Positions 14,427 to 17,669 of a stretch of DNA of 18,664 nucleotides are shown piece after piece. Within the stretch, counting starts at the first letter, position 1, and each line of letters starts with the position of its first letter. The stretch lies in the NCBI RefSeq assembly GCF_003334255.1, contig NZ_QOWU01000073.1. One strand, written 5' to 3'. Source of the DNA: Escherichia coli (GTDB taxonomy: Bacteria; Pseudomonadota; Gammaproteobacteria; Enterobacterales; Enterobacteriaceae). The position numbers and the translations under genes are program-made. Under the pieces are notes generated by a model, which had not been told where the DNA came from, searched no databases, and worked only from the letters and a program-made list of their open reading frames with translations.

Positions 14427-17400
14427 ATGGCGACGTTACGTGAACTGATTATCAAAATTTCGGCAAATTCGCAGTCATTCCAGTCGGAGATCCAGCGGGC
14501 TTCCCGCATGGGCAGTGAATATTACCGGACCCTGCAGAATGGCGGGCGTCAGGCTGCCGCAGTCGCCCGGGAGCAGCGACGCGCCCTGGCTGAGCTGAAC
14601 AGCCAGTTGACGGAAATCCGCGCTTCAGTTGCCGGAACGGCGGGGGCATTTGCAGGTGCCTTTGCCACCGGGCACCTGATTTCTCTGGCCGATGAATGGA
14701 GTTCCGTGAATGCCCGACTGAAACAGGCGTCGCAGTCATCCGATGAATTTTCGTCATCACAGAAAGTGCTGATGGATATCAGCCAGCGGACGGGCACGGC
14801 ATTTTCAGATAATGCGGCCCTGTTTGCCCGCTCGGCAGCCTCAATGCGTGAATATGGCTACAGTGCTGATGATGTGCTGAAGGTGACGGAGGCCATTTCC
14901 ACGGGGCTGAAAATCTCCGGTGCCAGTACGGCAGAGGCGGGCTCGGTGATCACCCAGTTCAGCCAGGCGCTGGCACAGGGTGTGTTACGCGGTGAGGAAT
15001 TTAATTCGGTCAATGAAAGCGGAGACCGGATCGTACGTGCACTGGCTGCGGGTATGGGCGTGGCCCGTAAAGACCTTAAGGCGATGGCGGACGACGGCAA
15101 ACTGACGGCGGATAAAGTCGTTCCTGCGTTAATCAGCCAGCTGGGGGTATTGCGTGATGAATATGCCGCCATGCCGGAAACGGTCTCTGACGGGATCACA
15201 AAGGTGGAAAACGCCTTTATGGCCTGGGCGGGTGGCGCGAATGAAGCCAGCGGAGCGACGAAAACGCTCTCCGGCGTGCTGAACGGTGTTGCCGGTAATA
15301 TTGATAATGTGGCAACAGCAGCGGGGGCGCTGGTTGCCGTCGGGGTTGCCCGGTACTTTGGCAATATGGCCTCCGGAGCGGTGTCTGCCACGGCAGGACT
15401 TGTGACGGCAGCACGTAATGAAGTGGCACTGGCGGAAGCACAGCTCAGGGGGACGCAGATTGCCACGGCGCGGGCAAGGGCAGCCGTGTACCGTGCACAG
15501 CAGGCTGTGGCGGCAGCCCGCGGGACGGAGATGCAGATTGCTGCAGAAGCCCGTCTGGCGGCCACACAGGAACGCCTGAACAGAAATATTGCTGCCAGAA
15601 CCGCAGCCCAGAATGCGCTGAACAGTACAACGGCGGTGGGCTCACGTCTGATGACTGGTGCGTTGGGACTGGTTGGTGGCGTACCCGGACTGGTGATGCT
15701 GGGGGCAGCAGCATGGTATACGCTGTACCAGAATCAGGAGCAGGCCAGGGAGTCAGCGCGCCAGTATGCACTGACGATAGATGAAATCGCGCATAAAACG
15801 CCGTCAATGTCTTTGCCTGAAGCCTCAGATAATGAAGGACGAACACGGGCGGCGCTGGCAGAGCAGAACCGGCTGATTGATGAACAGGCCAGCCGGGTGA
15901 AATCCCTGCAGGAAAAAATCGCTGGATATCAGTATGTTCTGGCTAACCCTGGCTGGACAACCGGTGACGGATTCATGATAAACCATCTGACATCGGTGAA
16001 GACCGTAACGGAAGGGCTTTCTCAGGCAACAGAGCAGCTTGCCGTTGAGCAGTCCCGTCTGGCACAGATGCAGGAAAAAGCGCAGTCCATTCAGGATGTG
16101 CTTGCCGGGCTGGAAGACCGTCGTGTGGCGTTAATTCGTCAGCAGGCGGCAGAGCAGAATAAGGTGTACCAGTCCATGCTGGTTATGAACGGTCAGCATA
16201 CGGAATTCAACCGTCTGCTGGGGCTGGGGAATGAACTGCTTCAGCAGCGGCAGGGACTGGTGAATGTACCGTTACGGCTGCCGCAGGCCACCCTGGATGA
16301 TAAACAGCAGAGCGCCCTGACAAAAACAGAACGTGAGCTGGCCCTGTCCCGACTGAAGGGGGAGGAAAAAGAGCGTGCCCGGCTGGGGTATGCGGCGGAT
16401 GACCTTGGTTTTGTGGGGGATTCGTATCAGGAGGCGAGACAGCGTTATATCAGTAATGCTCTGGAAGCCTGGCGTAATAACGAGGCGAACAAACCTAAAT
16501 CCCGGGGTGGAAAATCAGAGACGGAAAAAGCGGAAGACAGTTTCTCCCGGCTACTGAAGCAGCAGAAAGAGCAACTGGCACTGGCGGGTCAGAATACAGA
16601 GCTGGCGAAGCTGAAGTACCAGACTGCGCAGGGCGAACTGAAAACCCTGACGGAGATGCAGAAGCAGGAACTGCTGCGTAACGCGGCCCTGATTGACCAG
16701 CAAAAAATCCGGGAACAGTTGCGATCCCGGGAAGAGACCCTGAAGAATGATAATGTGGCTGCGCGTGCATCAAATGAAGCCGAACTGCTGGGGTACGGGC
16801 AGGGAGAACGAGCCAGGGAACGCATGCGGGAGTTGCAGCAGATCCGCGACAGCTTCCGCCAGAAGGATGCGGACCTTCAGTCTCAGTATCAGACCGGGGA
16901 TATCAGTGAGGATTTTTACAGACAGGCACGGGCACAGAACGCGCAGTATCTGAGCGAACGCCTTAAGGACCAGGCAGCCTTTTATGCCGAATCGGATGCG
17001 CAGCGTGCGGACTGGCAGAAAGGCTTGCAGGAGGGGCTCAGTAACTGGGTGGACAATGCATCCGATTACGCCTCTCAGGCAGCACAGCTGGCAACGGAGG
17101 GGATTTCAGGACTGGTGAATAACATCACGGAGATGCTGAACGGAAACAAAGTGGAATGGCGCAACTGGGCCTCATCCGTACTGCAGGAAATATCAAAAGT
17201 TCTTATGAATGCGGCCATTGTCAACGGAATTAAGACGGCGGCAAACGGTATGTCCGGTGCGGGAGGATTTATTGGCAGCATTGGTGACTGGCTGGGCGGT
17301 GCGGTGGCCAATGCAAAAGGCGGCGTGTATACCTCGGCAAACCTGAGCGCGTACAGCAACAGTATTGTGGATACGCCCACGTACTTTGCCTTTGCAAAAG

Positions 17401-17669
17401 GGGCCGGGCTGATGGGGGAAGCCGGACCTGAAGCCATTATGCCCCTGACCCGGGCGGCGGATGGCTCGCTGGGCGTACGCGCGGTGGGCAGTATGAACGG
17501 CAGTGCCGGTCTGGTGTATTCCCCGGTCTACCATATCGCCATTCAGAATGACGGGGCTAACGGACAGATAGGGCCGGAGGCGGCAGGCAGTCTTGTGCAG
17601 CTGATTGACCAGCGGGTGCAGGCGGTGATGCTGTCCATGCGACGTGACGGAGGAATGCTGAGTGGCTGA
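14427..17669 (+). CDS. H: Tail tape measure protein, 1080 aa
   Basis: Very long alpha-helical, Ala/Gln-rich protein downstream of G/G-T. SD AAAGGTG. Glycine-rich region near the C-terminus. Confidence 0.92.
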   Translation: MATLRELIIKISANSQSFQSEIQRASRMGSEYYRTLQNGGRQAAAVAREQRRALAELNSQLTEIRASVAGTAGAFAGAFATGHLISLADEWSSVNARLKQASQSSDEFSSSQKVLMDISQRTGTAFSDNAALFARSAASMREYGYSADDVLKVTEAISTGLKISGASTAEAGSVITQFSQALAQGVLRGEEFNSVNESGDRIVRALAAGMGVARKDLKAMADDGKLTADKVVPALISQLGVLRDEYAAMPETVSDGITKVENAFMAWAGGANEASGATKTLSGVLNGVAGNIDNVATAAGALVAVGVARYFGNMASGAVSATAGLVTAARNEVALAEAQLRGTQIATARARAAVYRAQQAVAAARGTEMQIAAEARLAATQERLNRNIAARTAAQNALNSTTAVGSRLMTGALGLVGGVPGLVMLGAAAWYTLYQNQEQARESARQYALTIDEIAHKTPSMSLPEASDNEGRTRAALAEQNRLIDEQASRVKSLQEKIAGYQYVLANPGWTTGDGFMINHLTSVKTVTEGLSQATEQLAVEQSRLAQMQEKAQSIQDVLAGLEDRRVALIRQQAAEQNKVYQSMLVMNGQHTEFNRLLGLGNELLQQRQGLVNVPLRLPQATLDDKQQSALTKTERELALSRLKGEEKERARLGYAADDLGFVGDSYQEARQRYISNALEAWRNNEANKPKSRGGKSETEKAEDSFSRLLKQQKEQLALAGQNTELAKLKYQTAQGELKTLTEMQKQELLRNAALIDQQKIREQLRSREETLKNDNVAARASNEAELLGYGQGERARERMRELQQIRDSFRQKDADLQSQYQTGDISEDFYRQARAQNAQYLSERLKDQAAFYAESDAQRADWQKGLQEGLSNWVDNASDYASQAAQLATEGISGLVNNITEMLNGNKVEWRNWASSVLQEISKVLMNAAIVNGIKTAANGMSGAGGFIGSIGDWLGGAVANAKGGVYTSANLSAYSNSIVDTPTYFAFAKGAGLMGEAGPEAIMPLTRAADGSLGVRAVGSMNGSAGLVYSPVYHIAIQNDGANGQIGPEAAGSLVQLIDQRVQAVMLSMRRDGGMLSG

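Follow-up and report, generated by a model that had tools for sequence, protein, structure and literature searches.

How many rings of tail tube does a tape measure protein (TMP) of 1080 amino acids (aa) specify? This is the question posed by an open reading frame (ORF) located at positions 14427–17669 of an 18,664-nucleotide (nt) stretch of Escherichia coli DNA (contig NZ_QOWU01000073.1, assembly GCF_003334255.1), which was analysed at its full length and is referred to below as the window. The first-pass annotation had taken the product of this ORF to be a tape measure of 1080 aa and, scaling from lambda, had predicted a tail of 170–190 nm. In our analysis the ORF encodes the TMP of a lambda-like prophage of E. 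coli with a tail module of the HK97 type, and the tail most likely has about 40 rings; to this reading as a whole we assign a probability of roughly 0.9. According to the calibrations described below, the most likely value of about 40 rings (range 35–42) would correspond to a tube of roughly 150–180 nm, to which the tip is added. The tail is probably somewhat longer than the 32 rings of lambda.

On the sequence evidence, the product of ORF 14427–17669 is the tail tape measure protein, and this identity is secure. The gene, on the + strand, begins with ATG and comprises 1080 codons and a stop codon (3243 nt) in the ORF listing, and its translation is free of internal stops. The start codon at 14427 is right, as HK97 gp16 begins with the same 22 residues (MATLRELIIKISANSQSFQSEI). 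PHROG 339, ‘tail length tape measure protein’, covers residues 1–1079 with E = 0, and the NCBIfam models TIGR01541 (lambda-type C-terminal domain) and TIGR02675 (N-terminal domain) match aa 725–1043 with 237.3 bits (cutoff 104.75) and aa 157–231 with 80.6 bits (cutoff 21.35), respectively. Pfam assigns TMP_3 (PF20155) to residues 83–272, Phage_HK97_TLTM (PF06120) to residues 395–686 and Tape_meas_lam_C (PF09718) to residues 862–933. These matches are far stronger than chance would produce; the 1080-aa tape measure of the first-pass annotation is thereby borne out, and nothing argues against this identity. The gene is already known: it is a routinely annotated and very common prophage gene, for which the PGAP label in complete E. 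coli genomes is ‘phage tail tape measure protein’.

The domain order can be followed along the chain, with all parts on the + strand. The N-terminal TMP_3 domain (aa 83–272, 14673–15242; PF20155, E = 2.5e-57) includes the TIGR02675 match and is followed by two segments that stand out as hydrophobic in the Kyte–Doolittle plot (19-residue mean). The first (aa 287–319, 15285–15383) is moderate, with a mean of up to 1.24, and the second, SRLMTGALGLVGGVPGLVMLGAAAWYTLY (aa 406–434, 15642–15728), reaches a mean of 1.73 and resembles a membrane helix. The second segment is kept in HK97 gp16 and aligns to gp46 of Pseudomonas phage JBD30. The central Phage_HK97_TLTM region (aa 395–686, 15609–16484) matches 292 of the 295 model positions of PF06120 with E = 7.6e-90, and is the part of the protein that diverges most from HK97, with several indels. 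The lambda-type C-terminal domain (aa 725–1043, 16599–17555) contains a Gly-rich stretch at around aa 900–1045, with the number of Gly residues per 60 aa climbing to 8–10 past aa 901. The C-terminal segment (aa 1043–1080, 17553–17666) aligns to residues 813–850 of lambda gpH; in the cryo-electron microscopy (cryo-EM) structures of lambda, gpH residues 818–842 or 818–849 were modelled as a three-helix coiled coil that the gpI trimer holds within the tail tip (PMC10721106; PMC12617516). The protein as a whole is rich in Ala and charged residues, with 14 Pro in 1080 residues.

The relationship to HK97 extends from end to end. HK97 gp16 (NP_037710.1, 1089 aa) is of nearly equal length and has the same Pfam architecture, and residues 1–1076 of the window protein align to gp16 residues 1–1079 with 52% identity (E = 0). 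The identity exceeds 80% over residues 1–300, and residues 690–1030 are also very similar, with the divergence concentrated in the centre, at around aa 320–700. End-to-end homology to gp16 and the PF06120 region, the two features that define an HK97-type TMP, are thus both present, and the genes flanking gp16 are as in the window (tube protein, frameshifted chaperone, M, L, K, I and J). As cited in PMC5099701, Cumby et al. (2015) found the entry of HK97 DNA to depend on the host proteins PtsG and FkpA through the TMP.

The relationship to lambda is more limited. Lambda gpH (NP_040595.1, 853 aa) has the same role and the same gene position, and is 227 residues shorter than the window protein. 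In BLASTP, gpH residues 477–850, which include the gpI-binding terminal helix of the tail tip, align to residues 733–1080 at 25% identity (E = 5e-20). No similarity to gpH was detected in the N-terminal ∼730 residues, and the two proteins are not orthologues over their whole length. What is shared is the Tape_meas_lam_C domain together with the C-terminal tip-binding helix (PF09718, TIGR01541 and aa 1043–1080). With homology to gpH confined to the last ∼350 residues, lambda is a weaker standard of comparison than the first-pass annotation implied. For the N-terminal part, the best relative of solved structure is JBD30 gp46 (PDB entry 8RK3, chain A, 1158 aa), which aligns to residues 34–465, hydrophobic segment included, with E = 6e-27; the C-terminal part of gp46 is unrelated, and the host and the baseplate are different.

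The principle from which the first-pass prediction started, a tail length fixed by that of the TMP, is right, as established for lambda (PMC8718954) and by a deletion series in TP901-1 that shortens the tail, with a ruler constant of 0.145–0.15 nm per residue (PMC5099701). Lambda has 32 rings with a rise of 42–42.8 Å (PMC8718954 and further cryo-EM work) for the 853 aa of gpH, a length given by its gene at 10542–13103 of NC_001416 and in line with the ∼850 aa given in the earlier prediction. This calibration of 26.7 aa per ring gives 40.5 rings and a tube of 170–173 nm for 1080 aa. JBD30 has 45 discs of 43.2 Å for a TMP of 1158 aa (PMC11445458), that is 25.7 aa per disc, which gives 42 rings and a tube of 168–181 nm. 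Both cryo-EM structures have about 26 aa per ring, and they therefore point to 40–42 rings and a tube of 168–181 nm for the window protein.

The same protein is found in phages whose particles have been described. Of 5426 complete E. coli genomes, 1224 have the 3243-nt gene at a coverage of at least 80%; when any match is counted, it is found in up to 8 places per genome. Among phage records, 53 match over the full 3243 nt with 95–99% identity, most of them long-tailed phages converting to Shiga toxin (Stx) 1a, 2c or 2a. The gene has the identical length (3243 nt, 1080 aa) in the Stx2 phage 1717 (ACI43162.1), 2851 (CAQ82049.1), phi330 (XYY30167.1) and Lys8385Vzw (QIW91686.1), the first three of which belong to the genus Pankowvirus. 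The proteins of phi330 and Lys8385Vzw are 97% and 98% identical to that of the window without gaps, differing by point substitutions only (20–37 of 1080), and the 1717 gene has 96.2% nucleotide identity to that of the window over its full length. The neighbours of the TMP gene are the same in all four phages as in the window. The window as a whole matches the late regions of Stx1a and Stx2c phages at 93–98%, and its best match among complete E. coli genomes is 97.3%, with none exact; no stx gene lies within its 18.7 kb. The near-identity that marks a Pankowvirus-type structural module is found for the TMP and the neighbouring late genes alike, in a comparison that covers the 18.7 kb window rather than the complete prophage genome. 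Judged by this near-identity, the TMP belongs to the same tail module as that of the long-tailed Stx phages of Pankowvirus. The phage records closest to the window are vB_EcoS-569R3, 705R7 and 783R2, and the literature search found no paper naming them.

Electron microscopy of particles had been proposed as the check on the predicted tail length, and published work on phages with this protein amounts to that check; four measurements bear on it. The tail of phi330 is about 145 nm, with an isometric head of 55 nm (PMC12502783), and that of Lys8385Vzw is 188.4 ± 0.5 nm, with a head of 83.6 nm ‘diameter’ (PMC6986202). The Pankowvirus phiSTEC799-Stx2c, which was compared at the level of its genus, has a tail of about 155 nm and a prolate head of 43 × 86 nm (PMC12029490); for a lambdoid particle of O157 Sakai that is not assigned to a phage, the tail is 147 nm and the prolate head 44 × 95 nm (PMC2669165). 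The mean of the four tails is 159 nm with a standard deviation of 20; all are negative-stain values, and the three short ones are approximate and given without stated errors or calibration. Two phages with a TMP of the same length and 97–98% identity to the window protein, phi330 and Lys8385Vzw, thus differ by 30% in tail length between laboratories, and for this reason the published data, which span 145–188 nm for phages with the same protein, neither confirm nor refute a tail of 170–190 nm.

The capsid module of these phages is also that of the window, in which positions 6864–8801 encode a 645-aa protease–major capsid fusion protein. This protein is 99% identical to that of phi330, and the capsid region of Lys8385Vzw, for which the head of 83.6 nm was reported, is 96% identical to the window in nucleotide sequence. 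The head shapes reported for phages with this module disagree, being isometric (55 nm), prolate (43 × 86 and 44 × 95 nm) or given as an ‘83.6 nm diameter’. In the study that reported the 188 nm tail, the capsid of an Stx2 podophage measured 77 nm (PMC6986202), compared with 51–72 nm elsewhere (PMC2669165, PMC12502783, PMC12029490). Since its capsid figures exceed those of other laboratories, the scale of the 188 nm study may be inflated.

Several points weigh against a tail clearly longer than that of lambda, or against the predicted 170–190 nm. A fully α-helical chain of 1080 aa, at 0.147–0.15 nm per residue, spans at most 159–162 nm. The pb2 protein of T5 is 1219 aa long. With 40 rings of 40.6 Å in T5 (PMC8718954) and a tail of 118 nm for ∼937 aa in TP901-1 (PMC5099701), T5-like and TP901-1-like ratios give about 138–145 nm, the TP901-1 regression (0.145 nm per residue with an offset of 127 residues) giving 138 nm for 1080 aa. 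The tails of 145, 147 and 155 nm are close to the classical value of 150 nm for lambda, so that a tail clearly longer than that of lambda is not seen in them, and the only long value, 188.4 nm, comes from the study with the large capsid figures. The best calibrator would be HK97 itself, for which no measured tail length was found in the literature searched; an Stx-phage review and the Lys8385Vzw genome paper give no tail lengths either.

Whether the tail follows lambda in strict proportion, as the full range of 170–190 nm in the first-pass annotation would have it, is about evenly balanced. The upper figure, 190 nm, is reached when the whole lambda tail of 150 nm, tip included, is multiplied by 1080/853; the same factor applied to the 135 nm lambda tube gives 171 nm. 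The ring scaling from lambda and JBD30 gives a tube of this order to which the tip is to be added, and the tail of Lys8385Vzw agrees with it. Juhala et al. (2000) reportedly describe the tails of HK97 and HK022 as exceeding that of lambda in proportion to the greater length of their H genes. In contrast, the three reports of 145–155 nm, the helical limit of 159–162 nm and the 138 nm of the TP901-1 regression fall short of the predicted range. An equal number of nm per residue in the two phages is moreover only assumed, because the N-terminal two thirds of the protein are not homologous to gpH. The predicted range is partly supported: it agrees with the cryo-EM ring calibrations and is defensible but lies at the upper end.

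The short measurements can also be taken at face value. The tail would then be no longer than that of lambda, at ∼145–155 nm and ∼32–35 rings, despite a protein that is 27% longer, and ∼150–200 residues of the N-terminal domain, the hydrophobic hairpin or the Gly-rich C-terminal part would have no role as a ruler, being folded or buried within tip and connector. We consider this a tenable alternative with somewhat less than even odds. It agrees with phi330 and its 97% identical 1080-aa TMP, with phiSTEC799-Stx2c and with the Sakai particle; in TP901-1 ∼127 residues do not count towards the length (PMC5099701), and the Gly-rich stretch of the window protein is unlikely to form an extended helix. 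Conversely, the ring counts of lambda and JBD30 are both against it, as is the tail of Lys8385Vzw, and the short values are approximate negative-stain figures, one of them from a particle of unassigned origin and another from a phage compared at the level of its genus. The corollary, that lambdoid TMPs with homologous C-termini and tip complexes differ by ∼20% in nm per residue, so that a TMP of 1080 aa gives 145–155 nm, is put forward tentatively and leans towards doubtful. A tail of about 40 rings remains the preferred reading.

No tail length would be observable from the locus if the gene lay in a defective prophage that makes no tail, which we regard as unlikely. In O157 Sakai, defects are found in many lambdoid prophages of this kind (PMC2669165), the portal ORF of the window ends at 10377 in contrast to the single 859-aa portal ORF of phage 2851, and the visible sequence extends over only 18.7 kb. 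Against this, all of the tail and head genes in the window are intact ORFs with full-length family matches, the TMP has no frameshift relative to the functional, plaque-forming phages phi330 and Lys8385Vzw, and a split portal is not peculiar to the window, since 1717 has the same one and phi330 also has a split one.

The portal region itself is organized as follows. The portal ORF (9013–10377, 454 aa) ends in an ATGA overlap with the next ORF (10374–11435, 353 aa), and PHROG 2271 (859 positions) spans both, corresponding to the one fused 859-aa portal annotated in 2851. A run of G at 10358–10362 (within 10354–10377) is G5 in the window and in 1717 and G6 in vB_EcoS-569R3 and phi330; one extra G at this position would fuse the two ORFs, and the difference may reflect mutation, a sequencing difference or recoding. 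Inside the post-portal ORF, positions 10538–10969 hold a tandem repeat of 162 nt (54 aa) in 2.7 copies with 92% match. The 1717 homologue of this ORF has 407 aa compared with 353 aa in the window and is therefore, being 54 aa longer, consistent with one additional repeat unit; the vB_EcoS-569R3 record has an assembly gap of Ns at the repeat region.

The genes around the TMP gene follow the order of the HK97/lambda tail module, with the tube protein and G ahead of T in the −1 frame, then the TMP and the gpM-like protein. Upstream of it are the genes for the head–tail adaptor (11432–11758), the head closure protein (11768–12118), the tail completion protein (12094–12561) and the tail terminator (12558–12902). 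The major tail (tube) protein (12969–13685, +, 238 aa), which matches PHROG 158 ‘major tail protein’ with E = 1e-117, has an immunoglobulin (Ig)-like C-terminal part, with residues 121–237 also matching Ig-like decoration families, and occupies the position equivalent to that of HK97 gp12. Between the tail terminator and major tail genes, a terminator-like CCCGC-loop-GCGGG followed by T6 is present at 12932–12946, a position equivalent to that of an annotated putative terminator in HK97. On the other side of the TMP gene, the gpM-like distal tail protein (17662–18003, +, 113 aa; PHROG 14 ‘minor tail protein’, E = 3e-36) is encoded by an ORF that overlaps the TMP stop by 8 nt, and its relatives are annotated as tail tip assembly protein M.

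Directly upstream of the TMP gene, the gpG-like tail assembly chaperone (13700–14074, +, 124 aa) matches PHROG 344 ‘tail assembly chaperone’ with E = 9e-47, and its start at 13700 agrees with the annotation in vB_EcoS-569R3, 1717, 2851 and Lys8385Vzw. The gene ends in ‘...AGA AAA AAG TAG’, in which the slippery heptamer A AAA AAG (14065–14071, +), read directly from the sequence as a putative −1 frameshift site, stands immediately 5′ of the TAG stop. The −1 frame is open over 14065–14379 (+) and would encode the gpT-like extension of a G–T fusion; a free-standing T ORF is listed from an ATG at 14098. PHROG 14766 (224 positions) is matched by G at positions 2–122 and by the T ORF at positions 133–224, as in a fused product, and the T part shares 60% identity with the frameshifted portion of HK97 gp13/14. 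As judged from the heptamer, the open −1 frame, the fused PHROG profile and the identity to HK97, the conserved G/G–T recoding of the tail chaperones is present by sequence.

The T stop and the TMP start are 47 nt apart, and this spacer holds a terminator-like hairpin (14385–14411, +) that consists of a 9 bp stem, GAGAACCGC/GCGGUUUUU, with the loop UGAG and a 3′ arm that runs into seven U residues; its RNA fold has −14.6 kcal/mol (z = −2.3 versus shuffles). HK97 has an annotated putative terminator at this spot, but 3′ of gp15, the superinfection-exclusion moron that sits between T and H in HK97 and that the window lacks.

By analogy with lambda, HK97, TP901-1 and JBD30, the chaperones G and G–T, the latter presumably produced by the −1 frameshift at A AAA AAG, would coat the TMP, a presumably largely helical chain whose C-terminus would be anchored in a tip complex of M, L, K, I and J homologues. 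Around this chain the tube protein of 238 aa would then polymerize until it is covered, fixing the number of rings, and the terminator protein would cap the tube. On infection the TMP leaves the tube in known systems and forms at least part of a trans-envelope channel (PMC12617516; PMC11445458). The window protein may likewise exit the tube, with its hydrophobic segments, which are candidates for membrane insertion, helping to form a conduit for DNA across the envelope.

In the remainder of the window, ORFs 2078–2656 and 3207–3548 give Rz-like spanin matches (PHROG 13 and PHROG 1267), and the region 2877–3680 exceeds its counterpart in the close relative vB_EcoS-569R3 by ∼1 kb in length. An HNH endonuclease ORF (3922–4287) lies directly upstream of the small terminase gene (4579–5142), as in 569R3 and 2851, a pairing typical of HK97-like cos packaging modules. 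The G+C content rises from 44–50% in the lysis/accessory region (1–4500) to 55–60% in the packaging, head and tail genes (4500–18664), and the GC skew is positive across the whole window.

In conclusion, the tail length of such a phage is not readable from the length of its TMP to better than about ±15%. If a lambda-length tail on a 1080-aa TMP proved to be true, it would be a natural exception to simple proportional scaling. The TMP described here belongs to one of the commonest tail modules of E. coli prophages, which is shared with the long-tailed Shiga-toxin phages.

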